This document shows, one piece after another, positions 5,030 to 52,371 of a DNA stretch of 64,000 bases; the first letter of the stretch is position 1; each line of letters starts with the position of its first letter. The stretch is from Vulcanimicrobiota bacterium (GTDB lineage Bacteria > Vulcanimicrobiota > Vulcanimicrobiia > Vulcanimicrobiales > Vulcanimicrobiaceae). A program made the translations under genes and the position numbers. Below the pieces are notes generated by a model, which was given only the letters and a program-made list of their open reading frames with translations, had not been told where the DNA came from and did no database searches. The stretch lies in NCBI GenBank assembly GCA_963715815.1, contig OY970278.1, forward strand, positions 2,460,569-2,524,568, in the 5' to 3' direction.

Positions 5030-5057
5030 AAACGATCCAACGCGCCGAAATTAGAAA

Positions 5058-5087
5058 AGCGTGGTCCGCACCGATGCGGACCACGCT
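5058..5087 (-). terminator. Intra-operon hairpin between the SBP gene and the permease genes (possible partial terminator or mRNA stabiliser)
   Basis: Perfect 13-bp stem agcgtggtccgca / tgcggaccacgct with loop ccga. An A-run lies on one side and a T-run on the other, so each strand reads hairpin followed by a U-rich tract. Confidence 0.4.
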
Positions 5088-5104
5088 CGTTTTTATACTG
5101 TGGA

Positions 5105-23125: not shown

Positions 23126-23933
23126 GCGGTCGCGCTTCCGCGAGCAGAGATTTCGCCCCCGCCAGGGCCGTGGTTACGGCAAGACGATGCATTGCAATAC
23201 GATCTTCCCACAAACGCCGGCGCGGCGTTTCTGCCGTGATATAGCGAGTCGTGGCGAAACGTAGGAGGTAGAGCGAGAGCGGCAATCCCGGAAACAGACG
23301 CATTTCCGCCCCAGCGTTCACCAATACACGCCCGCGCTCGAGCGTTCGCAGTCGATCCGCTCTATTCGGATCGCGTGGATAGCCAAGATCGAAGAGATGG
23401 TCCAGGGATTGTAAAGGGAAGCCGGCGAGCTCCAGAGCTTGCAAAATCGCTTCGCTAAGGGGAGCGCGTCCCTCGACGACCGGCTCGTAACAGTAGAAAC
23501 CCTCGGCTTCGAAATCTTCGTGCAAGTCCATCGCGACCGCGAAGCGGCGCTCGCGGTTTTCGGCCATAATCGCGCGCGACTCCGGCGTTGATGCTGTCTC
23601 GCTAAAGCTGCGATTCACGTCATTTCCTTCGGCGTTGACGCGCGTTCCGGCGCGATAGCCGCTTGGATTCGTGCACGGCCATATGCGATATGAAAATGCC
23701 GTGTCCAGCAGACCCGCCTCGACACACGAGAGCAGCGCCCAGGGGCCCGCGGGCTCGTCGCCGTGGACACCGGAGGTGAGGTGGACGATGGGCCTTTCGC
23801 GGGGCCCAAGCTCGACCAGCATCAAGCTGCGATCGCCGCTGTCGCAGGGGACCTCGCGGAACCAAAAACCCCGCCGGGTACTGGCCTTTTGCCAGGCTTC
23901 CCGCAGGGTCGCATATCCGGTGATTTGACTCAC
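23118..23933 (-). CDS. Zinc carboxypeptidase-like protein (M14 / succinylglutamate desuccinylase-aspartoacylase superfamily)
   Basis: 271 aa. LTSGVHGDEPAGPWALL is the Zn-binding H-x-x-E block. 8-nt overlap with the ETF-QO start. Confidence 0.7.
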   Translation of the reverse strand: MSQITGYATLREAWQKASTRRGFWFREVPCDSGDRSLMLVELGPRERPIVHLTSGVHGDEPAGPWALLSCVEAGLLDTAFSYRIWPCTNPSGYRAGTRVNAEGNDVNRSFSETASTPESRAIMAENRERRFAVAMDLHEDFEAEGFYCYEPVVEGRAPLSEAILQALELAGFPLQSLDHLFDLGYPRDPNRADRLRTLERGRVLVNAGAEMRLFPGLPLSLYLLRFATTRYITAETPRRRLWEDRIAMHRLAVTTALAGAKSLLAEARPHA

Positions 23934-24050
23934 GTTACCGGTTCCAATAAACGATTCGCCTCACAGGTTTCCTTCGCCACGCAGGGGACGGTCGTCAGCC
24001 GAACAACCAATCACTGTAAGCACCGGCGGTTTCTCGTCAGGGAGGTAGGA

Positions 24051-25136
24051 ATGTTTTTGGGCCGGGGTCACCGCGTATTTGGACGTCTACTGTCGGTAGC
24101 GTTAGCCGCGGCTTTCGTGTTGATGCAAGCCCCCCATGTTAGCCGTGCCGTCAGTGAAAAGACGGTCGTCCGGGTTTCCGGCGATGTCGGCTATCAAACG
24201 GGTGCCAACACACCCTTCATTCCGATCACGGGACAGCAAGCCGTCCCGGATAACTCGTATGTCGTTACACACGGGAGCGGCGTCGCCGACTTAGTGATGC
24301 CCGACTCGTCGGTCATTCGTATCGCGCAAGCCGCGACAATTCAAGTCGGTGAATTCCACGATCCGGGTACGGGAACGAATCAAATCACGATTCTCAACGG
24401 ATCGTTCCGCTTCAAGGTTCAGCATCCAGCCGGCGGCGTCTCGAACTACAAGTTCGTAACGCCGACCTCGCAGATTGCTGTCCGTGGTACAGAAGGCCTC
24501 GGCACCGTGAAGTCAGACGTCACGCAAGTTTCGACAACCGTCTCAACCACGCCGAACGACGTTCAAGTCGCAGCCGCAAAGATGCAGACATCCTACCTGC
24601 CGATGAACGGAAGCGCAAAAGATCTGAAGCTCTTCTTACGCGCGGATCCGAACGATGAAGAGCAACTCGCGAACATGTCGCCCGAACCGCGTCTCGTCTC
24701 GCAAGTGCAAGTCGTGTTCCAAGCCTTGGCGCAAGGCTTCACGGCAACGGTTACCGTTAACGGTGTCGTGGTCGGTCAGTTCGTCCTCTCCGGTGCCGCA
24801 CTCGGCGTCGGTGGTACGCTCTCGTCGACAGCAAGCGCAGCTGCAGGTGCAGGTTCGAGTGCAATCTCGGCCGGCACGTCGGCGGCAGCAGGCTCTGCAG
24901 CGGGAACCGCAGTCGTTACGGGTGCAGCAGCAGCCGCAGCAGCTGGCGGACTTGCGGCAGCCGCAAATCAACCGAACTCAGGCGTATCGGCCGCGCCGTC
25001 AGCAACGCCCGTACCGTCTCCGACGGCGAGCGTCGTGATCAGCATCGGTAATCATGATAGGAAACCGCAAGCGGCTCCGGCTCCGGCTCCGACACCACCG
25101 CCGATGCCGGTACCAGTGCCACCAGGACACAAGTAA
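24051..25136 (+). CDS. Secreted FecR-domain protein with Ala/Gly/Ser-rich and Pro-rich C-terminal tail
   Basis: ATG 24051 is preceded by ggaggtagga, followed by a signal/anchor segment LLSVALAAAFVLMQAP. A FecR-like block is present (GSGVADLVMPDSSVIRIAQAATIQV). The tail ends PAPAPTPPPMPVPVPPGHK. Confidence 0.7.
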   Translation: MFLGRGHRVFGRLLSVALAAAFVLMQAPHVSRAVSEKTVVRVSGDVGYQTGANTPFIPITGQQAVPDNSYVVTHGSGVADLVMPDSSVIRIAQAATIQVGEFHDPGTGTNQITILNGSFRFKVQHPAGGVSNYKFVTPTSQIAVRGTEGLGTVKSDVTQVSTTVSTTPNDVQVAAAKMQTSYLPMNGSAKDLKLFLRADPNDEEQLANMSPEPRLVSQVQVVFQALAQGFTATVTVNGVVVGQFVLSGAALGVGGTLSSTASAAAGAGSSAISAGTSAAAGSAAGTAVVTGAAAAAAAGGLAAAANQPNSGVSAAPSATPVPSPTASVVISIGNHDRKPQAAPAPAPTPPPMPVPVPPGHK

Positions 25137-25142
25137 CATAAT

Positions 25143-25182
25143 GGAAGCCCCTGAGCGATCAGGGGCTTCCTAATTTTTATTT
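25143..25182 (+). terminator. Rho-independent terminator after the FecR-domain gene
   Basis: Perfect 12-bp stem ggaagcccctga / tcaggggcttcc, loop gcga, followed by taatttttattt. Confidence 0.75.
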
Positions 25183-25287: not shown

Positions 25288-26559
25288 CTAAACTACATTA
25301 CCTAGTTGAATCGAGCGATCCAACAGTTCGATCGGGTGCATCGATTCAATCGTCTCACCGCGAGCGCGTAAGCGCGATTGTATCTGGAGCGTGCAACCCG
25401 GATTCGCGCTTGCGATCAGGCGCGTATTGGTTTTCAGGACGGCGTCGGCTTTGCGATCGCCGATCTCGCGCGCGCTTTCCGGCTCGAACAGGTTGTACGT
25501 GCCGGCGCTTCCGCAACACTGATCGCCATCCGGAATCTCGCAAAGCTCGAGACCTGGAATCTGCTGCAGCAAACTGCGCGGCTCGGTCCGGATCCCTTGC
25601 GCGTGCGCGAGATGACAAGCGTCGTGATACGCGACGCGCGCATTGATTCGCCCGCGCGGCGCTTGCGGTTCGAGACCGGCAAGGAGCTCGTTGATATCAC
25701 GGACGCGCGAGGCAAATCGCTGCGCTTTCTCGCGATATGCGAGATCGCTCGCGAACAGCTCGCCGTAGCCTTTCATCGCGGAACCACAGCCGGCCGCGTT
25801 CACGACGATCGCGTCATAAGGTTGTTGCTCGAAGCGGTCGATCAACGCACGCGCAAAGCCTTTGGCTTCTTCTTCACGCCCGGAGTGCAGTGAGAGCGCA
25901 CCGCAGCAACCCTGACCCTCGGGAATGTCGACTTCGCAACCCTCGGCGGAAAGGACACGCAGTGTCGCGGCGTTCACGTTCGGGAAGAAGACACGCTGCA
26001 CGCAACCCGCGAGGAGGCCGACGTGCATGCGTTTGGTTCCCTGTGCGTCGACGTGCGCAGGCAATTCTTCGCGCGCTGCCGCCGGGGGAGCAAGATCTTC
26101 AAGCTGTTGCAGCCGAGCCGGTAAGAGACTGAGAATCCCCGAACGCCTCACCAGCATTTGCAATCCGCTTCGCACGTAAAGCTGCAGCGGGGCGCGAAGG
26201 AACGCGAGCCGCGCCGGATACGGAAATATTGAAAACACGAAGTCGCGGAAGAGCTGATCGAAGAAGGTGCGTTTCGTCTGCGTCTCGACCTTCGCACGCG
26301 TCGATTCGATCAGGAGATCGTAGCGGACACCGGAGGGGCAGGCGGTGACGCAGGCCATGCAGCCCAGACACAGATCGAAGTGCTTTCGCACGGTGTCGGA
26401 AAGCGGAATAGCGTTTTCTTCAACGCCCTTCATCAAATCGATCCGTCCGCGCGGCGAATCCATCTCGACGCCCCACGAACGATACGTCGGGCATGCCGGT
26501 AAACAGAAGCCGCAGTGCACGCAATCCGAGATCAGATCCGCGTACGTTCGCGTGCTCAT
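25288..26559 (-). CDS. glcF: Glycolate oxidase iron-sulfur subunit
   Basis: MSTRTYADLISDCVHCGFCLPACPTY...CLGCMACVTACPSGV plus two CCG motifs (GCCGALS, QCCGSAG). ATG 26559 overlaps the glcE stop (ATGA). Confidence 0.9.
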   Translation of the reverse strand: MSTRTYADLISDCVHCGFCLPACPTYRSWGVEMDSPRGRIDLMKGVEENAIPLSDTVRKHFDLCLGCMACVTACPSGVRYDLLIESTRAKVETQTKRTFFDQLFRDFVFSIFPYPARLAFLRAPLQLYVRSGLQMLVRRSGILSLLPARLQQLEDLAPPAAAREELPAHVDAQGTKRMHVGLLAGCVQRVFFPNVNAATLRVLSAEGCEVDIPEGQGCCGALSLHSGREEEAKGFARALIDRFEQQPYDAIVVNAAGCGSAMKGYGELFASDLAYREKAQRFASRVRDINELLAGLEPQAPRGRINARVAYHDACHLAHAQGIRTEPRSLLQQIPGLELCEIPDGDQCCGSAGTYNLFEPESAREIGDRKADAVLKTNTRLIASANPGCTLQIQSRLRARGETIESMHPIELLDRSIQLGNVV

Positions 26560-27651
26560 AGGCCTCCCACGAAACGTCCAGGATTGAGACGATATTCCGG
26601 ATCGAAGCGTTCTTTGAGCGCGCGCATGAGCTTGAACGCCGGGGGCGGCGTCCCCCACGCGTCGATCTTCCCGCGCCACTCTGCGGGCATGTCTTGCACG
26701 ACCAGCGTTCCACCGAGCGATTCGAACAGCGCACGCAGGCTCACCCACTTTCGTCGAGGGGCAGCTGAAATATACGACGCCGAGGCTCGGATACGCTAAC
26801 GCCTCACCGTTGATCTCGCGCGCGATGCGTTCGAATTCCGTTGGCGGAAATGTTGCCTTGAGACGATATTTGCGCTGTCCCTCGATACCCTCCGGGGCAC
26901 AGGCTTCGCTCGGGATGACAACGGGGGCGAGCCCTAAATTCAAGCACGCAGCGCTCTGCGCTTCGACGCCCGGACCGAAACCTTCGAACACGACTTCGAC
27001 GATCGCGTCATCGCCATCGATCTGCGCTGAAAGCGACGCCGGCTCGAGCTGTGCTTCGCGCAATGCGAGCACGAACGGAAAGACGCGATCGATCTTGGCG
27101 TTGAAGCAGAGCCGGCGCGCGCTTTCCGGAAGCGGGTGCACGCGAAATGTCGCTTTCGTGATGATCGCGAGCGTGCCGAGCGAGCCGACGATGAGTTTCG
27201 AGACGTCGAATCCGGCCACGTTTTTCACGACTTTGCCGCCGGCGTGGGCAATCACGCCGTCGGCGCGCACCAGCTCGATCCCGACGATCAGATCCTTGAG
27301 CGTTCCGTAGCGGAGCGCGCTCGGTCCGTAGGCGTTCGTCGCGAGCATCCCGCCGATCGTGACATCGTCGCTGCCGAATGACTCGATGGCAAGACGCTGG
27401 CCGTGCTTTGCAAGCTCGGCTTGGAGCTCGCGCAGCGTAATTCCGGCTTCGACGACGACGACTTGATCTTCGGGCGTGTAATCGACAATTCGGCTCAGTC
27501 CACGCGTGCGAAGCGTAATGTCTTCGCGCGTTGCCGGATTGCCAAGGCCGAGCGCCGTCCCCGCACCGATCGTTGCAATCGCTTGATTCCCGGTTGAACG
27601 AACGGCTTCTACGACTTCCTCGACGGTTTTGGGTTCGAGCGTTTGGGTCAT
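26556..27651 (-). pseudogene. glcE: Glycolate oxidase FAD-binding subunit GlcE, interrupted by a 1-nt frameshift as sequenced
   Basis: The N-terminal ~300 aa (MTQTLEPKTVEEVVEAV...GGKVVKNVAGFDVSKL) are in the frame of track ORF 25288..27891. The conserved C-terminus (VSLRALFESLGGTLVVQDMPAEWRGKIDAWG...RFDPEYRLNPGRFVGGL) is in the frame of ORF 26556..26744. The switch lies within 26744-26796. Confidence 0.7.
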
Positions 27652-29111
27652 CCACGACCAGCCAGATCGTCTTTTTCCGTCTGGTGCGCAACGTACCGCC
27701 CTGGCCGGTCCCCGCACAAGCGCGGCGTTGGAAAAACTTTCGCCGGATTGAAAATGCGTTGCGGATCGAAGGCGCAACGGACACGATTCATCGTTTCGAG
27801 ATCGTCGTCGGTGAAGAGCTCTCCCATGTAGAACTGCTTGTCGTGGCCGACGCCGTGTTCGCCCGTAATCGAGCCGCCGTAACGGATACAAATACGCAAG
27901 ATTTCGCCCGAGACGTGCTCCGCGCGTTCGGATTCACCCGGTTTGCGCGCGTCGTACAGCACGAGGGGATGCAGATTGCCGTCGCCGGCGTGAAAGACGT
28001 TTGCGACGCGCAATCCCTCGCGTGCGGCGAGCTCCGCGATTTCGCGCAAGACCGGTCCGATCGAACGGCGTGGCACGACGCCGTCGCCGACGTAGTAATC
28101 GGGACTAATCCGCCCAACTGCCGCGAAGGCGCTCTTGCGGCCCTTCCACATCAAGTCACGTTCGAAGACATCGCGCGGCTTCCGAATCTCGATTGCTCCG
28201 GACGCCTTTGCGATTCGTTCTGCTTCCGAAGCCGTATGCGCGGCTTCGGCTTCAACGCCGTCGACATCCATCAAAAGCACTGCGCCGACGTCACACGGCC
28301 AATCGACACCAGTCGCGGCCACGATCGCTTCGATCGCCAGCGTGTCGCACATCTCGATTGCAGCCGGTACAATCCCCGCCGCGATGATTTTCGAAACGGC
28401 TTCACCGGCTTCATCGGTCGTCGGAAACGTTGCAAAGAGCGTGCGCGTCGATTGCGGCTTGCGCAAGATCCGCACCACGGCCTCGGTCACGATCCCGAGC
28501 ATCCCTTCGCTCCCGACGATAGCTCTTGTGAGATCGTAGCCCAGCGGATCGCCATGCTCGGCGCCGACGTCAACTATGCTCCCATCTTCGAGGACAATCT
28601 TTACCGCGACGACGTGATTCGTCGTGAAGCCGTACTTGAGACAATGCGCGCCGCCGGAATTCTCGGCGACGTTTCCGCCGATCGAGCAGACGCTTTGCGA
28701 GCTCGGATCGGGCGCGTAGTAGTAGCCGAGCGGGGCGAGGTGCGCGCTCATTGCAAGATTGATGACGCCGGGTTGCACGCGCATCCGCAGATTCGGCAAG
28801 TCGACTTCGAGGATCGCATTCATGCGCGAGAGCCCGACGACGAGACAGCCTTCAGTCGGCAGCGCACCACCGGAAAGCCCGGTCCCCGAACCGCGCGGCA
28901 CTACCGGCATGTTGGCATCGCGCGCGATGCGCACGCAGTCCGCGACTTGTTCGGTCGTGTTCGGGAGCACGACGATCCCTGGACGGACGCGATAGCCGGT
29001 GAGACCGTCGGCCTCGTAGGTCCGCAATTCGGTCGGATCCGTGATGCAATGCGCATTTCCGACCGCAAGCCGAAGGCGGTCGATGACCTCGCGCGACGGC
29101 GTGGCGATCAT
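27648..29111 (-). CDS. glcD: Glycolate oxidase subunit GlcD (FAD-linked oxidase)
   Basis: 487 aa. Contains VVPRGSGTGLSGGALP, GYYYAPDPSS and FHAGDGNLHPL. Its stop overlaps the glcE ATG (ATGA). Confidence 0.9.
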   Translation of the reverse strand: MIATPSREVIDRLRLAVGNAHCITDPTELRTYEADGLTGYRVRPGIVVLPNTTEQVADCVRIARDANMPVVPRGSGTGLSGGALPTEGCLVVGLSRMNAILEVDLPNLRMRVQPGVINLAMSAHLAPLGYYYAPDPSSQSVCSIGGNVAENSGGAHCLKYGFTTNHVVAVKIVLEDGSIVDVGAEHGDPLGYDLTRAIVGSEGMLGIVTEAVVRILRKPQSTRTLFATFPTTDEAGEAVSKIIAAGIVPAAIEMCDTLAIEAIVAATGVDWPCDVGAVLLMDVDGVEAEAAHTASEAERIAKASGAIEIRKPRDVFERDLMWKGRKSAFAAVGRISPDYYVGDGVVPRRSIGPVLREIAELAAREGLRVANVFHAGDGNLHPLVLYDARKPGESERAEHVSGEILRICIRYGGSITGEHGVGHDKQFYMGELFTDDDLETMNRVRCAFDPQRIFNPAKVFPTPRLCGDRPGRYVAHQTEKDDLAGRG

Positions 29112-29153: not shown

Positions 29154-31229
29154 CTAGAGTATCTGGAAGTACGGGCTGACGATCGCCGCGTGCGTGGCGC
29201 TCATCGAGCCTGCCACGGTGCCGCCCAGATTGTAGAAGAATTGAACGAGGCCGCCCGTGCTGATGCCGTTCCAGAGTCCGTCGTACGAGTTGACGATCTG
29301 CGTTACCGGATTGCCAAACGCCGGCAATGGCGCGCTCGTCGGCTGGGCCGGCGTATTGGCGATGAGCGGCGCAACGCTGGTGCCGTTTGCGGCCAGCAAA
29401 TAGAGTCCGGGCGCAGGGGTAGGATACGCGACCGCAAGTCTACCCGGACCAAGGTTGGCGCTGGTGCTGAACACGACGTTGCCGACTTCAACGCTACAGA
29501 AAAGATACAGACACGTGACCACGTCGTCGTTCCCGGAATCGAACGCCGTAAATGCCACATATTGCTCGCCCGTGAAATTATCCGCGGACGCCGCGTAGGT
29601 AACAGGATTGGAAAATGACGCGCCCGAGACCCCGGGGCCATCCGCGAGGTCGATTGTCGTCAACGACGGGTCGGCGTTCGCATCCGAGATTTCGAAGATA
29701 TTCGGCGAATTGTTACTCGTCGCGAACACGTAATCGCCGCTGCCGCCCGTGTTCCAAGAGACGATGAGATCGGAAGGCCCCGTTACTGTCCCGGCCGACA
29801 CGATCGTCGTAGTGGTTAAGGACGGCAAATTACTATCGCCGACCGCTTGAATCGAGCCGTCGGCATTCAAGATGTAGATCATCCCGGAACCAACGCCTTC
29901 GCCCGGCGAAACCGCAAGCGCGAGCGGATTACTTCCCGGAACCTGGGTTACAACAGCCGGTTGCGCGTTGATAAGGCCAACGTTGTAGGTCAAGCCGCCG
30001 AACGCGTCGCGACTCATATCGATGAGCGTCAGATACGGCGTACCGGAGACGCTGTCGAGAACTGCCACACCAGGAACGTAATCATCTCCTCCGATTGCCA
30101 CGGGATTGGAGAACGACGTGATCGTTGTTCCCGTCGCATAGTTTGCGAACGGAAGCGTGCCGCAGTTATATGTGCTTGGACCTGAGTCGACGAGCCCCGT
30201 CATGCTTATCCCGGTCGTCGATGGAGCGAGGGCGAGACGGTCGACGGCGTACAGATTTCGCGTCGTACTGGGCGTCAAATTGATTCCCACGCTGCCGGCG
30301 CTCGTGCTTACGTTGACGACACCCGTGCTGCCGCTGCTTGAAGCGGCAAATTCGAAATCCTGTGTCACGCCGTATGCAGTGGCGATGGTATACGGTGTCG
30401 TCAGTAGCTGCTGATTAAAGTTGTAGAGCCCGAAGCCACCCGAAACGCCGATCGTAACCGGATTCGCCAGCGGACCGCTGATGGGGTATCCAGCAGCATC
30501 TCCGATCAAAAATTCGGCAACGCCTGGGCCGCCGCTCGGATCGATGCACGACGTCGGTGCGTCGATGAGGACAGAAGCCGCGACGCCGTAGGTCTGAATC
30601 GAGATTGGACCCGGATAACCGGACGCCGAAATCGCGTACGCCGGCTGTGTGGCCTGGACAAAGCTCGTCCCCGGGAAACCCGGCGTTACCGAAAGCAGAT
30701 GCCCCGCCGAGTCGTACATTGCAACGTAAAACGTATCGCCGCCGAGAGGTGCGAAAACGTTTGAATAGTTGCTGCACTGATACGCGCCCGCAGCCGGAAC
30801 GTAGCCGCAGTAGAAATCGGTTTGTCCGTAGACCACACCAGCCGTGAACGGTCCCTGCGTAAGCGCTAGATTCGCACCCTGATAGATGGAGATCGAGATC
30901 GAGCCACCGATAACGCCTTCGCTGATATATTGCGGCTTTCGTACGAACGCGGCGCGCGTTTTGCGTGGCGTTAACGCCTTGGATCTCCGCTGTTTGTACG
31001 CGGGCTGATAACCCGGCGTCGTCCACGCCACATTGCTGCGCGTGGGCAGCGAAAATTTCAGCGCTATCTTCGACGAATTCGCCGGTGCGGTATTGTTATG
31101 TAGGTTGTTGCTCGGCGCGTTCGGGAGCGAGCCGCCACCCATTTTGCCGCCACCGCCGCACCCCGCAATAAGGATAAATCCAGCCGCCGAAACAGCAGCA
31201 GTAGCTTTGCGCGCGTCCATAGGGGTCAC
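29154..31229 (-). CDS. Large lipoprotein A of the three-member family (unknown function)
   Basis: 691 aa with lipobox FILIAGCGGGG. A short basic stretch (YKQRRSKALTPRKTRAAFVRKPQYIS) is followed by ~600 aa rich in S/T/G/N/A/V/Y/P and nearly devoid of K/R/E. Shares the ISGPLANPVT block with B and C. Confidence 0.75.
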   Translation of the reverse strand: MTPMDARKATAAVSAAGFILIAGCGGGGKMGGGSLPNAPSNNLHNNTAPANSSKIALKFSLPTRSNVAWTTPGYQPAYKQRRSKALTPRKTRAAFVRKPQYISEGVIGGSISISIYQGANLALTQGPFTAGVVYGQTDFYCGYVPAAGAYQCSNYSNVFAPLGGDTFYVAMYDSAGHLLSVTPGFPGTSFVQATQPAYAISASGYPGPISIQTYGVAASVLIDAPTSCIDPSGGPGVAEFLIGDAAGYPISGPLANPVTIGVSGGFGLYNFNQQLLTTPYTIATAYGVTQDFEFAASSSGSTGVVNVSTSAGSVGINLTPSTTRNLYAVDRLALAPSTTGISMTGLVDSGPSTYNCGTLPFANYATGTTITSFSNPVAIGGDDYVPGVAVLDSVSGTPYLTLIDMSRDAFGGLTYNVGLINAQPAVVTQVPGSNPLALAVSPGEGVGSGMIYILNADGSIQAVGDSNLPSLTTTTIVSAGTVTGPSDLIVSWNTGGSGDYVFATSNNSPNIFEISDANADPSLTTIDLADGPGVSGASFSNPVTYAASADNFTGEQYVAFTAFDSGNDDVVTCLYLFCSVEVGNVVFSTSANLGPGRLAVAYPTPAPGLYLLAANGTSVAPLIANTPAQPTSAPLPAFGNPVTQIVNSYDGLWNGISTGGLVQFFYNLGGTVAGSMSATHAAIVSPYFQIL

Positions 31230-31278
31230 GGTTTCGCGAAGACGAGCGCTCGCCCTCGTTAATGATCTGTGCCGCTGC

Positions 31279-33024
31279 TCACTTGCCGATCGGGCCTTCT
31301 TCCTTTAGCCGTGCAGGTTTCGTCAAGCGCGAGCCTGTGACGTTCAGAACGACACCGCCCTTGGCTCGAATATTCTCTACGAATTCGCGCCGCCGGATAG
31401 CGAGGAGTGGGCGATCCGGGAAGGGGTGCCGCTTGTATGCCTCCTCATAGAGACCGGCGTAGGCGGTACCGGTCCGTTGCAGCCAGTGCGCATAGTCGCC
31501 ACCGTAGGACCACAGCGACGTGACCCGGTCGACGTGAATCCAATCGTAACGCAGGGCGATCCGCAAGATCATCTCGTAGTCGTCATTAGGCGAAAGCGCC
31601 GTGTCGAACAGTCCCAGTTCGCGGAATACGTCGCGTCCAATGACCGCGGATATCATTCCGAGAAACGGGCAAACGACGAGCGCTTCTTCGATATCGACGC
31701 CGGAGACCGCGCCGGATGCAAAGCCGACGAGCTCATCCGGCGCGCCGCGGATTCCCATCAACGCGTCCGCATGCGCGACCGATCCTCGTGAACGCTCGAG
31801 CGCATCGACGAGCGACGAGATGTGATCGGGGAAAAAGATGTCGTCGTCGTCCAAGAACGCGATATACTCACCCGACGCACGTTCGATTCCGGAATTGAGC
31901 GCTGCACCGTGCCCGCCATTCGACTCGCGCATAACATGGCTAGCGCCGAAACGCTCGGCGATATCGGCAACGTCTTCTCCCGCATCGTTGACAACGAACA
32001 TTTCGATCGCCGGATAGTCTTGCCGCTTTATGCTCTCCAGGGCGCGCGGCAAAAGCGTGCGGCGATTGTAGGTCGGCGTGATGACGCTGACGCGCGGCGC
32101 ACGCTCGCGGACAATGGCTCCGTTTGAACGGCGCTTCGATGTTTTGGCGGGCAACAGCGGCTGCGCGACCGCGATCGGCGGAGCACTTCCGAGTGCACGG
32201 AGCGTCGAAGCCAATATCGAATCGCGGTTCCAGCCATCGTACGTCGAAACGCCGCCGATAAGCTCGTTTGCACCCGTCGTGCGCGCCACCGCAAGGGGAA
32301 CGCCGAAGCGCGCGAGCGCGAGAGCGGTTCCGGGCTGATCGTCGCTCGTATCGACGATCGCAGCCGCCGAACGTAGCAACGTTTGTGCTTGCGCGACCGT
32401 CGCGCGATGGATCGTGTCCGGAATCTTTCCGCCTTTGCAGACGACGTAGACGGGGACGTGCAGCTCCTCGAGCGCGCATAACGTAATCGCGATCTCATCC
32501 GCGCTCCGGTTTCCCGCCCAGATGACGACGTGATCGGCGTCCTGCGGCGGACCGAGCGGCTCGGGGACAGTTACATCGCCTTGTACGACCTCGGTACGCG
32601 ATTCGTGCCACCGTCCGAACATGAACGCGAGCCGCGTGTAGGCGGATTCGGACACGACGACGCCCGCGTCGGCAAGACACCACAGTGCGCGCGCGAGCGC
32701 GAGAATCTCTCCCGGGACTCCGCTTAGCTCAGCCTGCCGTTTTCCGTCGACCACGATTGCGCCCATCGCGATCCCTCCGCAGACGCCGCGGCGATCGTCG
32801 AATGTTTTCGCGGACGTCAAAAGCTTCGCGGCCCATGCGCGCGAGAATCGGTTTGGGTCTTCGTCGAGAAACATCGCGACGGCGAAACGCTCGCCGCGCG
32901 CTCGCTGCCGTACGCCTTCGAGAATCGCTTCCAGAAACGCGGACTCGTCTGCAGCAATGACGTTACCGCCGGTCTGCGCACTCTTCGCCCACCTGCGAGC
33001 GTGCTCTCCAAACGCCTTGATCAC
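31279..33024 (-). CDS. Two-domain glycosyltransferase: unassigned Rossmann/GT-B-like N-domain plus a GT2 (GT-A) C-domain
   Basis: 581 aa. GT2 block: VSVITPTYNRRTLLPRALESIKRQDYPAIEMFVVNDAG...YIAFLDDDDIFFPDH. The N-terminal ~290 aa are paralogous to the next gene. Confidence 0.8.
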   Translation of the reverse strand: MIKAFGEHARRWAKSAQTGGNVIAADESAFLEAILEGVRQRARGERFAVAMFLDEDPNRFSRAWAAKLLTSAKTFDDRRGVCGGIAMGAIVVDGKRQAELSGVPGEILALARALWCLADAGVVVSESAYTRLAFMFGRWHESRTEVVQGDVTVPEPLGPPQDADHVVIWAGNRSADEIAITLCALEELHVPVYVVCKGGKIPDTIHRATVAQAQTLLRSAAAIVDTSDDQPGTALALARFGVPLAVARTTGANELIGGVSTYDGWNRDSILASTLRALGSAPPIAVAQPLLPAKTSKRRSNGAIVRERAPRVSVITPTYNRRTLLPRALESIKRQDYPAIEMFVVNDAGEDVADIAERFGASHVMRESNGGHGAALNSGIERASGEYIAFLDDDDIFFPDHISSLVDALERSRGSVAHADALMGIRGAPDELVGFASGAVSGVDIEEALVVCPFLGMISAVIGRDVFRELGLFDTALSPNDDYEMILRIALRYDWIHVDRVTSLWSYGGDYAHWLQRTGTAYAGLYEEAYKRHPFPDRPLLAIRRREFVENIRAKGGVVLNVTGSRLTKPARLKEEGPIGK

Positions 33025-34745
33025 GGCAACGGCCTAGGCGGCTCGAAGCGAATCGCGGGCGTCCCCCAGCGCGGTGTCATGTCGACGCCGCGATGCTGAT
33101 CGATCATCTGTTGACGCATCGCATCGATTTGCGGACGCTCGACGAGCGGATGAAGCTCGACGATACGCGTGAACGCGCTTCCGAAGCGGGCCGCGAGCGT
33201 TACCACGGTGTTCGTCGCGTCCGTTCGAACGGAATAAATGCCGGTCACGTACGGCACGTACTGTACGTCGTAATGTTCGGCGATGCGGATCCAAAGCTCC
33301 CAATCTTCGGCGAAATCGACCGATTCATCGAATCCGCCTAGATCTTCAAGCACGGATCGTCGCATCAGCATCGACATCGGTGCAATCGGATCGCGCACGT
33401 AGATGTCCGAGCGGTCGATATGACGTGCGAGCGCGACGCGGTAGCCGTAGACGGCGTAATCAGAAAAGGGCGTAAGCTCGAGATAGCACGTGATGGCGTG
33501 CGCGTTCGCAGCCGCGCCTCGCGTCCGCTCCATCGCATCGACGAGACGAGCGACGTGATCCGGAAAGAGCATGTCGTCGTCGTCCAAGAGGCCGACGTAC
33601 GTTCCGCGCGCTGCGCGCAGGCCGACGTTTGCAGACGGCGTCGTTCCAAGATTCTTCTCGTTGACGACCAGACGCGCAAACGGGAAGCGCGCGACGATCT
33701 CGTCGACCGGCTCGCCGGCGTCGTTGACGACGACCGCTTCGACATCGCGATAAATTTGCGATGCGATGCTTCCCAGCGCGCGCTCGAGAAATCTCGGGCG
33801 ATTGTGCGTACGAACGATGATCGAAGTCAACGGTCCGTTCGTCCGAAGCTGCGGTGCGTGCAGTGGCACCGCCGCCGCCGGCGGTGAGATCGTCGCGGGT
33901 GGACGTCCGAGCGCGACCTGAACACTTTCCCGAATGCTGCGTCGAATCCACGGCACATAGGCGGCAATGCCGGGAACGTATTCGTGTGCGCCGTTGGTCA
34001 TCGGCGTCACGACCCGGTGCCCAAGGCGCGTCAATTCGATCGCGTCGTGCGGATCGGACAATTGCGCGTCGACGACGACAGCCGCATCTGCGATGACGTC
34101 AGCGGCCTGGTGCGGACGCTGAACTTCGACCTCCGGATCGCGAAATGTTCCGCCCTTGCAGACGATGACAAGCGGCATATGAAAATCTATCAGCCCGTAA
34201 ACGAGTAAGCTCAGTTGCGGCGCCTGCAGCTCCGGCGCCCAAAGAACGATTTTCCCGGCGTCGTTTTTCGGCCCGGGCAAATCGAGCGGCTTGCGCGAGA
34301 CGATCCTGCGCACTTCTCCGGGCTCGATGCCAAGCATGCGCGTCACACGATTCGCTTCGGACCAGCTTCGCACGACGAGAACGTCGGCCATACGCGCAAA
34401 ATCGCGTAAGGTGTCGAGCGCGCGCGGATCGATCGTCGACATCTGAGTCATCGGCTTTCCGTCGATAACAGCGCGGTGGTTCGCGATCTCTTCGAACATC
34501 TGCATGCGTTCATCGCGATAGCGATGCTTGTTGATTACGTTCCCCGAGAGTGCCCACGCAAGCGAAGAACGGGGCTCGTCGATTGCAATCGCAGCCAGCA
34601 CGGGCTCTCCGCGCTTTTTCGTCTCGATCGCGTGCAGAAACGCAGAAGACGCGCCGGTAGGATCGACGATGATGAGCTGATCGTCCATCTCGTCGAACCG
34701 GCGCGCCCACGCCCGTGCATTATCGCCGAAGGCTAGGATCGCCAC
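33021..34745 (-). CDS. Two-domain glycosyltransferase, paralogue of 31279..33024
   Basis: 574 aa. GT2 block: SIIVRTHNRPRFLERALGSIASQIYRDVEAVVVNDAG...YVGLLDDDDMLFPDH. 4-nt overlap with the downstream paralogue. Confidence 0.8.
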   Translation of the reverse strand: MAILAFGDNARAWARRFDEMDDQLIIVDPTGASSAFLHAIETKKRGEPVLAAIAIDEPRSSLAWALSGNVINKHRYRDERMQMFEEIANHRAVIDGKPMTQMSTIDPRALDTLRDFARMADVLVVRSWSEANRVTRMLGIEPGEVRRIVSRKPLDLPGPKNDAGKIVLWAPELQAPQLSLLVYGLIDFHMPLVIVCKGGTFRDPEVEVQRPHQAADVIADAAVVVDAQLSDPHDAIELTRLGHRVVTPMTNGAHEYVPGIAAYVPWIRRSIRESVQVALGRPPATISPPAAAVPLHAPQLRTNGPLTSIIVRTHNRPRFLERALGSIASQIYRDVEAVVVNDAGEPVDEIVARFPFARLVVNEKNLGTTPSANVGLRAARGTYVGLLDDDDMLFPDHVARLVDAMERTRGAAANAHAITCYLELTPFSDYAVYGYRVALARHIDRSDIYVRDPIAPMSMLMRRSVLEDLGGFDESVDFAEDWELWIRIAEHYDVQYVPYVTGIYSVRTDATNTVVTLAARFGSAFTRIVELHPLVERPQIDAMRQQMIDQHRGVDMTPRWGTPAIRFEPPRPLP

Positions 34746-34781
34746 GCGCGAACCTTTCGCCCGGCCGTTAGCGCGCGGCCT

Positions 34782-36791
34782 CTACGGATAGGTTAGCGTG
34801 AGGTAGTGATTCGGCCAGCACATCGATGCGAGGTAGCTCCAGCTATTCCCGCCCGTCCAGCGCAGCCACGTGACCTCGCCGGTGCCGGTGCAAGGTCCGC
34901 TCCCTTGCGGACCGCCATAAAATCCGGCGACACCCGGAGTGCCCTCGAGGCCCGAGAGAATTCTATTCGCGCCGTGGGCAAGTGGATAAATCGCTGGCGT
35001 CCCGGGGAAGTTCGCAATGAAGGTGGCCGGCGTCACGCCGTTTGCCGGAAATCCGAACGCACTGGTACCGCCGCTCGCAAACATGATGTCGCCCGAGCCG
35101 GGATCATATTGCAGGCTGACGGGATTTGTGTCCGTGCTGCTCGTGCCGTGGCAGTAAACGCTGCCCGTAAACGCCGACGAGCTGAACGCGCAGACATAAA
35201 AAGCATTTGTATTGTCAGCACCACGGACGAGATCAAGGCCGGAGTTGTTGCCGGACGTCACGACCGAATAGATCTGTCCCGTAATCGGATAGCCCGACGA
35301 AAAGTCAACCGGCGTAAGTGCAGATCCCGGCGGCGAACTGGAGTTGAAGCCGTATAAGACCGGCGTTCCAACATCGTTGAAATAAATAACGCCTTTGCCC
35401 GGATTCCCGGCGAATCGCGTACTAGAATTGAACAACGTGCTTGACGGGCCATAGGCGCCGTCGCTGTAAACGACGCCGTTCGACGTATCGTCGAAGTCGA
35501 TGGTGTTCGAGGATACGATGTCTACGCGGCCTGGCCACACTGCCGACGTGAGTATGTTGACAAACGGACTCGACGGCATGAACGCGTACGACTGATAAAG
35601 CTGCGACTTGGGTCCGATGTTTCCGTAGGCGTTCGAGGCTTGGAAGAACGTGTAGGCGTGCGACGCAGACGCGGGCGAATACGCATCGAAGATCGCGACG
35701 TTGTTGTAAGCGTCGCCGGTTACGAGGTACGGCATCCCCGTGACGGGATCGAGGAACGATTCCACCTCGATGAAGGCACTGTTCGTTCCGTTCGCCGATT
35801 GACACATCACCGCTTGGTTCAAGCTCTGCTGTATCGCGATCGGATACATGCCGTCTTGCTGCGGATTGCCGTCGAGCGCCCAAGCGATATACGTGCCGGT
35901 CGCGGCATAGCCCGCGCCCCCTGAGTAAGAGAGCGTCTGACTATTGAAGTACAGCGGAATGTTCGTCACGCTCGCGCCGATGTAGACAGCGCCCTCTTGG
36001 CCGCTTACGAAGATATACGGCGAAGAATAGATCGAGGAATCCGTCATCGTCCACGTGTTTGCCGCGGCCGGGGAGCCGTTGTACATCACGTAGAGGCTAA
36101 CTGCACCGAGCCCGGCGCCATTGTAGGCGGTGAAATTTGCCGTCAACGGATTCGCGATCGGTCCAACAATCGTGTTGCCGTCGAAGTCGAGCACGTACAG
36201 TGGAATGCTTTGCTGGACACCGGCCGCGAAGCACTCTTGGGGCGTTTGGAGCTGCAGGTTCGAGATCACGCCCGCGGTCGTAACGTAGACATTGTTCGGA
36301 TATGGCGAGCCATTGGCATAGATCGTCGTCAAGGACGGATTGGAGTAGACGTTCGTGGAGAGCAGATTGATATTCTGGTCGTACAGGTTTAAGTAGATTT
36401 CGTAAGCGCCGGCCTGCAAGTTGGTGCTGCATTGATAAGTATAATTGCTGGATGTGCAAGACGAGAGCGCAAGATACGTGAAAAATGCCTGCTGCCCGTT
36501 GTACATCTCCTGGATACCCACGTACGCAGTCGATGGACTGACCCACGTCGGCACGCGCTTTGCAGCCGTGGGGCGATAGGCTGCAGTGCCGCGTTTTGAC
36601 ACTTGAGTCTGTCGCGCCGGCACGGTGAGACTCAGCGTAACTTTGGCCGGATTCGTGAGCGACGACGACGGTCCGAGGCCGTTGCTGTTCCCACCGGCCG
36701 GCGAGGGCGCAAGCGCGTGTCCTCCGCCGGAGCAGCCGGCGACGAGAAACAACCCTGCGGCCGAGAGCGCAGCCACTTGAGCCTTTTTCAT
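34782..36791 (-). CDS. Large lipoprotein B (paralogue of C)
   Basis: ATG 36791 is preceded by gaggaaaagc. Begins MKKAQVAALSAAGLFLVAGCSGGGH. The track ORF extends to 36947, but that extension is Arg-rich and overlaps gene C. Confidence 0.75.
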   Translation of the reverse strand: MKKAQVAALSAAGLFLVAGCSGGGHALAPSPAGGNSNGLGPSSSLTNPAKVTLSLTVPARQTQVSKRGTAAYRPTAAKRVPTWVSPSTAYVGIQEMYNGQQAFFTYLALSSCTSSNYTYQCSTNLQAGAYEIYLNLYDQNINLLSTNVYSNPSLTTIYANGSPYPNNVYVTTAGVISNLQLQTPQECFAAGVQQSIPLYVLDFDGNTIVGPIANPLTANFTAYNGAGLGAVSLYVMYNGSPAAANTWTMTDSSIYSSPYIFVSGQEGAVYIGASVTNIPLYFNSQTLSYSGGAGYAATGTYIAWALDGNPQQDGMYPIAIQQSLNQAVMCQSANGTNSAFIEVESFLDPVTGMPYLVTGDAYNNVAIFDAYSPASASHAYTFFQASNAYGNIGPKSQLYQSYAFMPSSPFVNILTSAVWPGRVDIVSSNTIDFDDTSNGVVYSDGAYGPSSTLFNSSTRFAGNPGKGVIYFNDVGTPVLYGFNSSSPPGSALTPVDFSSGYPITGQIYSVVTSGNNSGLDLVRGADNTNAFYVCAFSSSAFTGSVYCHGTSSTDTNPVSLQYDPGSGDIMFASGGTSAFGFPANGVTPATFIANFPGTPAIYPLAHGANRILSGLEGTPGVAGFYGGPQGSGPCTGTGEVTWLRWTGGNSWSYLASMCWPNHYLTLTYP

Positions 36792-36804
36792 GCTTTTCCT
36801 CGTG

Positions 36805-38766
36805 CTAATATAGCGACGCCAACCATGCGTTCGGCCACATAACTGAACCGTAGCTCGTCCACGAGCTTCCGTTCCACTGCAGGAACGTCGTTGTAGACGA
36901 ACCGTCGTAGACACCCACAAAGCCCGGCGTCGCTTCTCCCGGTACAAATCGCGCTTGCGCCGCCGGGAACGTGTAGGCGCCGCCCATAGCGAAGCTCGCC
37001 GGCGGTACGTCCGCGTAGCCGTATTTCATCACGGTTCCGTTGATGGCCAGCATATCGCCCGACAAACTGTCGAACCGCATGCTGACCGGGTTCGAATTCG
37101 CACTCGAGATATAGAGGCAATCTTCACTTCCGACACCGATCGTGGGATCGAACGTGCATATCTGGTATTGCGTCGCAGAAGCGTCGTAGCCTCGGAAGAA
37201 AATGTAGTTGAAGTTAGTGCCCGATGGTTGGAGCGTGTATATCTCACCGCTTGACCACATTTGGAGCGCCGGATATTGATTACCGTTCGTCCTGTCGACG
37301 CCGTACAACCAGTTTGAGCCGCTCGGATTCGTGTAGTAGAGCGGATAGATGCCGTTCCCCGCACCAGCGATGCGCAGCGACGAGGTCGCGGTGAACTGGA
37401 ACGTGTACGTTCCCGAGTAGACCGTATTTCCGTTTGTGGCATTAAACTGATCGGCTTGACCGTTCCCCGAGTTGTTCGAATTATTCGTTATGACGAAGAA
37501 GCGGCCCGCAACGTCAGGCGACGTGAAGAGATTCACCGGAGTTTCGTTACTGCCCAGCGTGTACGTCGACGTAATGGGGAAAGCTATTTGAGGAACGCCG
37601 CCGGCGAGGTACATAACGGGATTGCCGGAGCCGAGCATGTCAATGGTGTTCCCGTCGACAACGATGATATTGCGATTTGAACCTGACGAGTCACCGGTGG
37701 TGCCTAAGTAGGTCGGGCTGCTGAGCGACGGATAGAGTGAGATGCTGTTGCAGCTTATAATAGCCGGAACGTTTTCTTGAATGTCGTAGGCGTTGAGCAC
37801 CGGATTACCGGGCGTCATTGCGATGGCGATGTACGTACCAACAGCCAATTGCGCGAATGCAGGGCTCGCGATCGAACCGAGTTGAAAGCCGGCGGCTCCG
37901 TTGCTTCCAGCGCCGAAACTGGCCGGGATATTGTACGTCGCGCCGTAGAGCACGCCGGAACCCTCAGGGCCCGATTCGTAGACGAACAACTGATACAGTG
38001 ACGTGTCGTAAACCGTGTTATGATCCGCGGAAGCAACGCCGTACGTCGACACTTCGTAGAGGTCGACCGCGGCGAGCCCAGCGCCGTTCCCCGCATTAAC
38101 GTAACCCGTGAGCGGGTTGGCTAATGGGCCGACGATCTCGTTGTCGTCGGCATCGAACGCGTAGATCGGAGCATAGGCGCTCGAGCCGGTCGTCGTCGTG
38201 CAATTGTCCGGCGCGGCGATGAATACATACTGCGCAATCGCTTGGCTGTCCACGTAAAGATAATTGCTGTACACCGACGGCGCCGCGCCGTTGGCGTAAA
38301 TCGTTTGCGCGGTGGGGTTCGCGTATAAATTCGTGCCAAGCCAATGATTGCTCGAATCGTAGAGATTCGAGTAGATCGTGTACGTTCCGACCGGAAGATT
38401 CGTCGCGCACTCGTAGGCCACGTACACATTCGTGCATTGGCTAAGGTAGATCGACGTCGTGAAGACGCTCGTGCCGTTGTACGTTGCGGTAAGCGCGACG
38501 CTTGCCGTCGAGGGGCTCACAAAACTCGGAACCCGCTTGCTCGAAACCGCCGGCCGGGCCTTATTGCTGACACGCCGCCCGCTCAATGTCTGTTTTTGGG
38601 CGAGCGTGATGCTCAGTGTGACCTTAGCGCCATTGGTGAGACTCGATGGACCGTTGCCGCCGCCCGATGACGACCCAGAACTTAGGGAATGCCCCCCTCC
38701 GGAGCATCCCGCAATCAACATCAAGCCCGCAGCCGAAAGTGCCGAACGTCGCGCCCTGTTTGCCAA
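36805..38766 (-). CDS. Large lipoprotein C (paralogue of B)
   Basis: TTG 38766 is preceded by aaggaag 6 nt upstream. Begins MANRARRSALSAAGLMLIAGCSGGGH. Collinear with B at both termini (KVTLSITL.../...WPNAWLASLY). Confidence 0.75.
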   Translation of the reverse strand: MANRARRSALSAAGLMLIAGCSGGGHSLSSGSSSGGGNGPSSLTNGAKVTLSITLAQKQTLSGRRVSNKARPAVSSKRVPSFVSPSTASVALTATYNGTSVFTTSIYLSQCTNVYVAYECATNLPVGTYTIYSNLYDSSNHWLGTNLYANPTAQTIYANGAAPSVYSNYLYVDSQAIAQYVFIAAPDNCTTTTGSSAYAPIYAFDADDNEIVGPLANPLTGYVNAGNGAGLAAVDLYEVSTYGVASADHNTVYDTSLYQLFVYESGPEGSGVLYGATYNIPASFGAGSNGAAGFQLGSIASPAFAQLAVGTYIAIAMTPGNPVLNAYDIQENVPAIISCNSISLYPSLSSPTYLGTTGDSSGSNRNIIVVDGNTIDMLGSGNPVMYLAGGVPQIAFPITSTYTLGSNETPVNLFTSPDVAGRFFVITNNSNNSGNGQADQFNATNGNTVYSGTYTFQFTATSSLRIAGAGNGIYPLYYTNPSGSNWLYGVDRTNGNQYPALQMWSSGEIYTLQPSGTNFNYIFFRGYDASATQYQICTFDPTIGVGSEDCLYISSANSNPVSMRFDSLSGDMLAINGTVMKYGYADVPPASFAMGGAYTFPAAQARFVPGEATPGFVGVYDGSSTTTFLQWNGSSWTSYGSVMWPNAWLASLY

Positions 38767-38913
38767 ATTTAACTTCCTTGGTAGGTAGTTAGGCGGTTCG
38801 AGCCCTGGGTTGTCCGACCTTGCGTTGGTTTAGAAAGTGTGAGGTCGCTCAGACAGGGGATGACCTCCGAAGAAGCGCCAAAGGCGCTCGACCAATCGAC
38901 GAAAGGATGGCAC

Positions 38914-39273
38914 ATGAATCCGTCTGACCTCTCAGAACGCATCATGGCCCAAGCGCGCGATCTCCAGAACAAGGTCACGCAAGCGGCGAGTCAATCCGCG
39001 GAACAGATGAAACCGTTCATCGAGCAATCGATGACCACGGCCGGCGAGCTTCAGAAGACGCTCGCCGAGCACGCCTCTAAGACGGCCGCGATCAACCAGG
39101 AGTACACAAACCGCGCGCTCGGACACGTCTCAGAGCTTATGAAGCTGGGATCCGAAGCGATGCGAGCAAATGCGGAGCAAGCACGCGCAATGGCACAGGA
39201 CATGGTCGGCCACGCACGTCGAGCGTACGAAACGACGAGCGCCTTCGGGCACGAAGCCGGGAAGGACGACTAG
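38914..39273 (+). CDS. Small all-helical protein, phasin-like (tentative)
   Basis: ATG 38914 is preceded by gaaaggatgg. 119 aa rich in A/Q/E/M with no hydrophobic segment. The call rests on composition only. Confidence 0.5.
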   Translation: MNPSDLSERIMAQARDLQNKVTQAASQSAEQMKPFIEQSMTTAGELQKTLAEHASKTAAINQEYTNRALGHVSELMKLGSEAMRANAEQARAMAQDMVGHARRAYETTSAFGHEAGKDD

Positions 39274-52320: not shown

Positions 52321-52371
52321 CGAAGTTCTCGCTTTCCAGGACTCTGTGCGCAGCCCTCCGTAGGGGGCTGC

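Follow-up and report, generated by a model that had tools for sequence, protein, structure and literature searches.

A recurrent lipoprotein and glycosyltransferase gene cluster of Eremiobacterota, possibly a lineage-specific envelope module

The main finding of this work is that a five-gene cluster of a Vulcanimicrobiota bacterium brings together lipoproteins and two-domain glycosyltransferases (GTs) whose genes stay adjacent, in a recurrent order, at related loci. The cluster occupies positions 29154–38766, on the minus strand, of a stretch of 64,000 nucleotides (nt), here called the window (GenBank assembly GCA_963715815.1, contig OY970278.1, positions 2,460,569 to 2,524,568), and encodes, in the direction of reading, the lipoproteins LipoC and LipoB, the enzymes GT fusion 2 and GT fusion 1, and a third lipoprotein, LipoA. 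We tentatively interpret it as a lineage-specific envelope module of Eremiobacterota (Baltobacteraceae/Vulcanimicrobiaceae), the glycan of which would be tied to, and probably carried by, the lipoproteins. Orthologues of the two enzymes, referred to below as GT2-type (GT fusion 2) and GT1-type (GT fusion 1), form a pair in every related locus, and the minimal conserved unit appears to be an N-module lipoprotein, that is, one with the N-terminal module described below, followed by the GT2-type and then the GT1-type gene.

Nineteen related loci holding the GT pair or part of it were recovered. Scans with back-translated patterns, which were strict, gave close relatives on four genome contigs and 11 metagenome contigs, and the distant loci came from a separate search of encoded proteins. 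The close relatives (L001–L003, L010–L013 and L014–L024) share the order gltB, a phasin-like gene, one or two lipoprotein genes of the B/C type, the GT2-type gene, the GT1-type gene, one to three lipoprotein genes of the A type, and glcDEF. Lipoprotein copies upstream and downstream of the GT pair number two and one in the window, L003, L012 and L018, one and two in L001 and L013, and one and three in L002 and L020; across the related loci the A-type copies range from zero to three, and lipoprotein duplicates stay at the locus. At 13976–14103 of L003, in the stretch of about 220 nt that separates the GT pair from the second LipoC-like gene, short LipoB-like remnants were found (68–73% identity over 22–25 amino acids, aa), which points to a recent loss of the LipoB orthologue there. 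Broken genes in L010 and L011 were considered as pseudogenes and rejected, since gltB, glcD and M20 are fragmented there too. Nearly every gene of L011 and many of L010 are split into several open reading frames (ORFs); both loci belong to Microflora Danica long-read metagenome-assembled genomes (MAGs), and the fragmentation is likely due to indel errors in them.

The distant loci carry a single lipobox lipoprotein of 605–629 aa, encoded 10–40 nt upstream of the GT pair, and no A-type copy. Identity of their GTs to those of the window was 66% in L026, 38% in L004 and 33–38% in L009, and the N-modules of the respective lipoproteins were matched by hhalign with probabilities of 98.7%, 95.8% and 98.0%, with the alignment confined to the N-module; in L006 (GT identity 37%) hhalign was not significant beyond the lipobox. 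The refuting outcome named with the original prediction, a lack of conserved linkage to these GTs, did not occur: wherever the flanks could be read, a lipobox lipoprotein gene stood directly upstream of the GT pair, at 10–40 nt in most loci and at about 220 nt in the exceptional L003. Insertions of other genes separate the phasin-like gene from the lipoprotein, or the GT pair from glcD, in some loci, and none separates the lipoprotein from the GT pair; the inserted genes encode Pyr_redox proteins (L004, L006), a PQQ propeller (L026), a cellulase (L002) and a 2-hydroxyacid dehydrogenase of the family 2-Hacid_dh (L006). In L009 the GT pair is duplicated, with the lipoprotein between the two pairs, and glcDEF lies upstream of the unit. 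The phasin-like gene keeps its place between gltB and the lipoproteins in most of the related loci.

The three lipoproteins, LipoC (36805–38766, minus strand; 653 aa), LipoB (34782–36791, minus; 669 aa from the start MKKAQ) and LipoA (29154–31229, minus; 691 aa), all begin with a basic n-region and a hydrophobic core, after which come an (I/V)AGC lipobox and (S/G)GGG. The block SAAG(F/L)xL(I/V)AGC(G/S)GGG, which corresponds to one read from the sequence earlier, is present in all of them. With signal peptidase II (SPII) lipoproteins defined by a short basic n-region, a hydrophobic h-region and a lipobox [LVI][ASTVI][GAS]C with its Cys at about residue 15–35, LipoA (LIAGC, Cys24), LipoB (LVAGC, Cys20) and LipoC (LIAGC, Cys21) are predicted to be Sec/SPII-type lipoproteins, and the same pattern was found in nearly all family members with complete N-termini. 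Export by Tat was rejected for want of a conserved twin-arginine motif S/T-R-R-x-F-L-K in a long n-region, as RR occurs in a minority of members only, LipoB has KK and LipoA RK, and the signal peptides are 20–24 aa long. The mature N-terminus of the N-module lipoproteins is almost always Cys-(S/G/A)-G-G-(G/S); by contrast, the SBP_bac_5 lipoprotein of the window (14641–16281) begins Cys-T-R-A. The Gly run after the lipobox Cys may be a family-specific tether or sorting signal.

The lipoproteins had been described as giant and as three paralogues. Their size is merely 650–690 aa, and paralogy over the full length holds for LipoB and LipoC (35% identity end to end, E 1e-70), whereas LipoA resembles them over its first 255 residues or so only (26%, E 2e-12). 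LipoA is therefore better placed in a separate A subfamily that shares with the B/C subfamily an N-terminal module of about 250 aa and has a C-terminal part of about 430 aa without detectable similarity to theirs. In LipoB the N-module is encoded at 36117–36659 (minus; about residues 45–225) and includes Cys112 and Cys121, which are among the cysteines conserved across the family (LipoB numbering), and the motif D202..I.GP.ANP.T; in LipoC a Gly/Ser linker joins lipobox and N-module. The motif D-x-x-G-x-x-I-x-G-P-(L/I)-A-N-P-(L/V)-T attributed earlier to all three is indeed there, except that LipoC has D instead of G as the fourth residue, and its invariant core is D...I.GP.ANP.T. We take the D..GN.I.GP motif of the N-module to be like that of Big_1-type Ig domains; Pfam gave no such match. 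A hidden Markov model (HMM) of the N-module detected LipoC (E 1.3e-58) and LipoA (E 9.3e-64) and no carrier in the window besides the three reported genes. In composition the lipoproteins are poor in charge (K+R 2–3%, D+E 4–5%) and hold about 20% S+T, 11% G, 6–8% N and 5–7% Y, which, with the conserved cysteines, would fit an extracytoplasmic protein; such a composition is typical of exposed proteins. Eremiobacterota are diderm, with an outer membrane covered by lipopolysaccharide (LPS) (PMC9758169, PMC6664022), so the anchor of the lipoproteins would lie in the inner or the outer membrane, with the protein exposed to the periplasm or to the surface.

In line with the original prediction, which recognised no enzymatic motif in these proteins, no match to Pfam, NCBIfam, PADLOC or PDB profiles was obtained, and a PDB profile search with a 17-sequence lipoprotein alignment returned chance matches alone. 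A reading as anti-phage defence was rejected, as PADLOC gave no meaningful match for any of the five proteins. Neither did S-layer, S-layer homology (SLH) or adhesin families match the lipoproteins in Pfam, NCBIfam or PDB, which argues against an S-layer-like or adhesin coat of a known family with the GTs as S-layer glycosylation enzymes. The composition, charge-poor and rich in S, T, N, G and Y, would suit such a coat, as would the weak NHL, Lactonase and YncE-type repeats of the distant relative in L009, which are presumably like the YVTN propellers of archaeal surface-layer proteins. However, thin sections of the only cultured relative show a typical Gram-negative envelope, its description does not contain the term "S-layer", and there is no slg-type glycan cluster; we hold this explanation to be very improbable. 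The family itself is narrow: a word-indexed search with LipoB among 5.8 billion proteins gave 18 homologues, an exhaustive hmmsearch of 1.84 billion cluster representatives gave 64 at E<=1e-3 and 27 at E<=1e-10, and every member with a named source is a MAG of Eremiobacterota (Candidatus Baltobacteraceae, Vulcanimicrobiaceae or Candidatus Eremiobacteraeota). Most weak matches of the exhaustive search span profile positions of about 2–300 only.

The C-terminal half of the lipoproteins is probably a β-propeller. The AlphaFold2 (AF2) model of LipoB, built from the 17-sequence alignment, has a predicted local distance difference test (pLDDT) of 48 overall and leaves residues 1–88 and 170–355 unmodelled; residues of about 400–660 (pLDDT 55–88) form all-β blades of three to four antiparallel strands each. 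Foldseek related these blades with probability 1.0 to many β-propellers (WD40, NHL, fungal and Photorhabdus lectins; template modelling score of about 0.5 on the target), and no propeller repeat family of Pfam matched LipoA, LipoB or LipoC. When 37 family members were scanned singly, the N-module was found joined to recognised propellers: Vgb_lyase in P0142 (184 bits) and P0151 (216 bits), both against a cut-off of 50, PQQ_2 in P0135 (99 bits; source label "BamB"), and weaker NHL, SGL, Reg_prop, Lactonase and YncE repeats in others. As one module is joined to various propellers, the architecture would be that of a lipobox, a Gly/Ser tether, a "stalk" module of about 200 aa and an interchangeable β-propeller head.

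A propeller head raises another explanation, in which GTs and lipoproteins are coupled and the latter are not acceptors: lectin-like or glycan-processing propellers would bind, anchor, trim or export a polymer, for instance as a tether of exopolysaccharide (EPS) to the outer membrane. The Foldseek matches include the sugar-binding lectins PHL, PLL5 and AFL among many others, family member P0148 has a sub-threshold galactose-binding-domain-like match inside its N-module, and, among the structural neighbours of the GT-A domain, enzymes of polysaccharides or teichoic acids prevail. At 8001–10232 of L025, moreover, an N-module lipoprotein with a PQQ_2/BamB-like propeller has as neighbours a GT9 heptosyltransferase, a Wzx-type flippase, methyltransferases, an AftD-like GT-C of 1329 aa and a GT4, which is another link between the N-module and envelope-glycan genes. 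Nevertheless, the propeller matches are generic and come from a low-confidence LipoB model, and genes for export, polymerisation or priming are missing from the locus and its surroundings. Besides, a fixed glycan ligand would be expected to conserve the binding head, and the propeller half differs between LipoA and LipoB/LipoC and in the distant loci while the GT pair is conserved. We therefore consider a lectin-like role quite unlikely.

The lipoproteins are the fast-evolving, duplicating and occasionally lost part of the module. In BLAST comparisons of the window with L012, amino acid identity was 98% for M20, 95% for glcD and 92% for gltB, 90% and 83% for the GT2-type and GT1-type enzymes, and 66%, 61% and 48% for LipoC, LipoA and LipoB, respectively. 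Ratios of nonsynonymous to synonymous substitution (dN/dS, NG86) against L012 and L003, which are approximate because dS is near saturation (0.6–1.8), were 0.015–0.046 for the housekeeping neighbours, 0.07–0.12 for the GTs and 0.19–0.27 for the lipoproteins; the closer comparison of L010 and L011 gave 0.13–0.15 for LipoB and 0.045 for the GT2-type gene. The lipoproteins thus evolve 4–10 times faster than their housekeeping neighbours, with divergence spread along the protein and somewhat higher C-terminally. This pattern is consistent with exposed envelope proteins, and relaxed constraint would look alike.

GT fusion 2 (33021–34745, minus; 574 aa) and GT fusion 1 (31279–33024, minus; 581 aa) are paralogous over their whole length (32% identity over 568 residues, E 8e-77) and have the same two-domain architecture, which in GT fusion 2 consists of an orphan α/β domain (residues 1–290) and a GT-A/GT2 domain (about 305–510). 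That each enzyme carries a GT2 domain, as originally proposed, is upheld by Pfam, AF2 and Foldseek together. PF00535 was detected in both (99.2 and 73.0 bits, gathering cut-off 23.3; E 3.7e-20 in GT fusion 2), the AF2 model of GT fusion 2 from a 30-sequence alignment reached a pLDDT of 90.8 and a predicted template modelling score of 0.89, and the neighbours listed by Foldseek for the full-length model were all GT-A enzymes (AvpGT, PmHS2, K4CP, WrtF, RmlT, TarP and SpsA; E down to 3e-16). The nearest NCBIfam families (WcaA, TuaG, EpsD, PglI and MftF) scored 55–62 bits against equivalog cut-offs of 280–500, so neither donor nor acceptor can be transferred from them. D342, D389–391 (DDD), R463 and D481 are invariant in 30 sequences spanning both paralogue lineages, and thus both copies look catalytically competent. 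The GTs have no transmembrane segment, the most hydrophobic stretch sits in a modelled β-strand, and both enzymes are predicted from the model to be soluble.

The first 290 residues or so of these enzymes, the N-domain, are more difficult to place. The secondary-structure order of the AF2 model fits two α/β lobes (about residues 1–150 and 165–280), so the second Rossmann-like domain of the original prediction stands as a modelled α/β domain, and the term "dual-domain glycosyltransferase" should not imply two active sites. In this domain, diverse members have just S127, A170 and G252 in common; charged residues, including the catalytic acidic ones of the E-x7-E type known from GT4/GT-B enzymes, are not conserved. 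Two PDB profile searches with two alignments gave chance matches alone for the N-domain, GT4/GT-B families of Pfam were sub-threshold only (PF13439, Glyco_transf_4, in 4 of 30 sequences, best E 0.0076 and 16.7 bits against 28.5; a GT4-conflict match in 1 of 30), comparison with the GT4-GT2 fusions of the homologue list was negative by hhalign and hmmsearch, and hhalign with a 536-aa ORF upstream of the L005 GT gave a probability of 3.8%. The N-domain is probably a degenerate Rossmann-like, non-catalytic domain, possibly derived from GT-B. The two GT genes are tightly joined: the stop of GT fusion 2 and the start of GT fusion 1 share 4 nt, which suggests translational coupling, and stop/start overlap or abutment is kept in L001, L002, L003, L004, L006, L009, L012 and L026, as is typical of subunits made in equal amounts.

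Based on these features, we hypothesize that the two GTs probably pair as a heteromer in which each would add one sugar, and that their orphan N-domains may serve pairing or acceptor recognition and not catalysis. The glycan from the pair would be functionally tied to the adjacent lipoproteins, which may be modified in the cytoplasm before Sec export, or via a carrier handled by machinery encoded elsewhere, and which would form the exposed, fast-evolving, copy-number-variable part of the diderm envelope; catalytically empty N-domains on one side and the conserved N-module of the lipoproteins on the other would lend themselves to mutual recognition. That the lipoproteins themselves are the glycan acceptors, as dedicated glycolipoproteins comparable to the substrates of known systems, is conceivable, if rather doubtful. 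Acceptors are nonetheless the version of the module that we favour, because the locus offers soluble GTs and exported proteins only: Pfam scans of most of the larger ORFs revealed no flippase, priming transferase, polymerase or oligosaccharyltransferase in the 64 kb, and the earlier statement that the window lacks Wzx/Wzy, a glycan exporter of the ATP-binding cassette (ABC) type and sugar-nucleotide genes agrees with them. More speculative still, and unlikely, is an as yet undescribed, self-contained protein-glycosylation system of Eremiobacterota in which the GT heteromer would recognise, through its non-catalytic N-domains, the N-module or linker of the lipoprotein precursors and glycosylate these; the products, fast-evolving and variable in copy number, would coat the outer membrane and display exchangeable propeller heads.

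The proposed module has to be weighed against a serious alternative, the absence of any coupling, which we judge somewhat unlikely: the lineage-conserved GT pair would make some general glycan, be it LPS, EPS or a small molecule, the lipoproteins would be unrelated β-propellers acting as periplasmic or outer-membrane enzymes, binders or assembly factors, and the block from gltB to glcDEF would have been inherited with hardly any rearrangement. Several observations speak for this alternative and, at the same time, against our own interpretation. The genes gltB and glcDEF and the phasin-like gene adjoin the module, in the same positions, at nearly the same evolutionary depth, and with gltB and glcDEF conserved as deeply, adjacency by itself is weak evidence of function. 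Distant members of the GT family (30–32% identity) occur in the deoxy- and amino-sugar clusters of L005 (5335–17494) and L008 (1–16066), which lack such a lipoprotein; these clusters comprise RmlA/C/D, DegT aminotransferases, WbqC, O-methyltransferases, PhyH, heptose-pathway genes and an AAA_22 ATPase, and the 10 kb to each side of them show neither a flippase nor a polymerase. N-module lipoproteins are likewise found apart from the GT pair, in L007 (inside a riboflavin operon), in the context of P0127 and, as a third case, in L025 among the envelope-glycan genes named above, and the lipoprotein of L006 has no detectable homology beyond the lipobox. On the same side of the balance, the overall dN/dS is below 1, so the faster evolution of the lipoproteins may reflect relaxed constraint and not diversifying selection; as the LipoB model is poor (pLDDT 48), a propeller is assigned on the strength of the C-terminal third and of the relatives; and we know of no precedent for the cytoplasmic glycosylation of a lipoprotein precursor. 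Acceptor motifs are not enriched either, N-x-S/T occurring 8 times per protein, close to the 10 or so expected from the percentages of N and S+T by a hand calculation, and the Bacteroidetes-type O-glycosylation motif D(S/T)(A/I/L/V/M/T) 0–2 times per lipoprotein. The enzyme-type families among the propeller heads of the relatives (Vgb lyase, SGL and PQQ) also favour an absence of coupling. On the contrary, the position of glcDEF on the opposite side in L009, where the lipoprotein still lies between two GT pairs, the insertions, none of which lies at the junction of lipoprotein and GT pair, the spacers of 10–40 nt without a terminator-like site, and the retention of lipoprotein duplicates at the locus are all difficult to reconcile with it.

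Regarding the layout of the cluster, the ORF list reproduced the five minus-strand ORFs of the original prediction in coordinates and length, and the spacers claimed there (13 nt, 36 nt, a 4-nt overlap, 49 nt, and 42 nt to glcD) follow from these coordinates. The longest ORF enclosing LipoB reaches 36947; the start MKKAQ is preferred since the 13-nt spacer holds a GAGGA Shine-Dalgarno sequence ahead of this ATG and homologues start at the corresponding position. An AAGGAAG Shine-Dalgarno sequence precedes the TTG start of LipoC, and the GTG start of LipoA has no obvious one within 15 nt. A perfect 10-nt palindrome, CGAGCGCTCG, lies at 31243–31252, inside the 49-nt spacer between GT fusion 1 and LipoA. 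Horizontal transfer of the cluster was rejected, its GC content being 0.57–0.63 against about 0.60 for the window.

The sequence suggests that the N-module lipoprotein, GT2-type and GT1-type genes are probably transcribed together. No terminator-like hairpin was found in any intergenic spacer of the cluster, and the first strong terminator-like site downstream on the minus strand comes after glcF: a perfect bidirectional hairpin with a 12-bp stem at 25143–25170, between the convergent glcF and FecR-domain (23763–25136) genes. As terminator-like sites are as numerous as expected from shuffled sequence, the absence of hairpins is compatible with a long transcript but no proof of one. Upstream, the divergent intergenic region of 72 nt between LipoC and the phasin-like gene (38767–38838) is the likeliest promoter region of the cluster, a role assigned from its position because no consensus σ70 site was found in it. 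The phasin-like or apolipoprotein-like gene beyond it (38839–39273, plus; 144 aa) is divergent from LipoC. At the other end, glcD (27648–29111, minus) begins 42 nt downstream of LipoA, and glcE is apparently frameshifted at 26780–26940, within an ORF at 25288–27891 (minus): tblastn with the GlcE of L004 placed residues 31–242 in one frame and 316–388 in another, so that the N-terminal part of glcE runs on, without a change of frame, into glcF, giving a single ORF of 867 aa. A genuine pseudogene or fusion would account for it, as would an indel error of long-read assembly.

Elsewhere in the window, the sole ABC system of the scans is a Liv-type amino-acid importer (1633–6454). A GH125 exo-α-mannosidase (8925–10163, minus) and a NamZ exo-β-N-acetylmuramidase (50546–51757, plus) are, besides the two GTs, the only carbohydrate-active enzymes among the Pfam-scanned ORFs. 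A second glcD/glcE-like pair, with FAD_binding_4 and FAD-oxidase_C in the first gene and FAD_binding_4 in the second, is located at 51931–55027 (plus), about 23 kb from the glcDEF that adjoins the cluster.

Eremiobacterota are abundant in peat, tundra and volcanic soils; to our knowledge a single isolate has been cultured, and the envelope biology of the phylum is essentially undescribed. Our results add two unannotated, phylum-restricted families, a lipoprotein "stalk" module with varied β-propeller heads and a two-domain GT2 family, and the locus offers a compact five-gene hypothesis of how both may work together. If the coupling is true, it would represent a new dedicated GT-substrate module, the first with lipoproteins that we know of, and candidates for surface antigens of the phylum, or for determinants of its interaction with phages, would be found in the lipoproteins. 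If it is false, these "hypothetical proteins" still gain an annotation as β-propeller lipoproteins of the envelope, and the enzymes one as soluble GT2 proteins whose N-domain is probably non-catalytic. Both the folds and the overall logic are of known kinds, and the analysis demonstrates no unexpected mechanism.

Previous knowledge of other systems helps to situate these proteins, although we are not aware of any prior description of a lipoprotein-GT association of this kind. Like BamB, whose propeller is of the PQQ_2 type, the lipoproteins combine an N-terminal lipobox with a predicted β-propeller body; unlike BamB, which has about 390 aa, those of the window have 650–690 aa, lack a Pfam propeller match, bear an additional N-module of about 200 aa, occur in several copies and evolve fast. 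The enzymes recall K4CP/KfoC, PmHS2 and the GT4-GT2 fusions, in which a GT-A/GT2 domain and a second nucleotide-binding-like α/β domain share one polypeptide, and K4CP and PmHS2 were among the top structural neighbours of the GT model. However, K4CP and PmHS2 have two active GT-A domains, whereas here the second domain is an orphan two-lobed α/β domain and the enzymes come as a coupled paralogous pair. Soluble GT2 enzymes such as SpsA, WcaA, EpsD, PglI and TuaG gave the best sequence-family matches (E 1e-11 to 1e-17) and share the D...DxD...D signature, but lack the extra N-domain of about 290 aa.

The closest resemblance in gene organization may be to dedicated cytoplasmic GT-substrate pairs, namely aah-aidA (Aah/AIDA-I), tibC-tibA, hmw1C-hmw1A and gtfAB-SRRP (GtfA/GtfB and the serine-rich repeat adhesins, SRRPs). 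The enzymes of these pairs are of the GT-B type (GT41, BAHT, GT4), unlike the GT-A/GT2 catalytic domain of the present family, and their substrates are autotransporters, two-partner secretion (TPS) adhesins or SRRPs with repeated acceptor motifs, in place of which the cluster encodes lipoproteins with no acceptor motif found. In both cases, by analogy, genes of soluble GTs adjoin the gene of an exported surface protein, without a flippase, an oligosaccharyltransferase or a priming enzyme; and, as with GtfA and GtfB, the enzymes of the cluster would act as a paralogous pair, presumably co-expressed.

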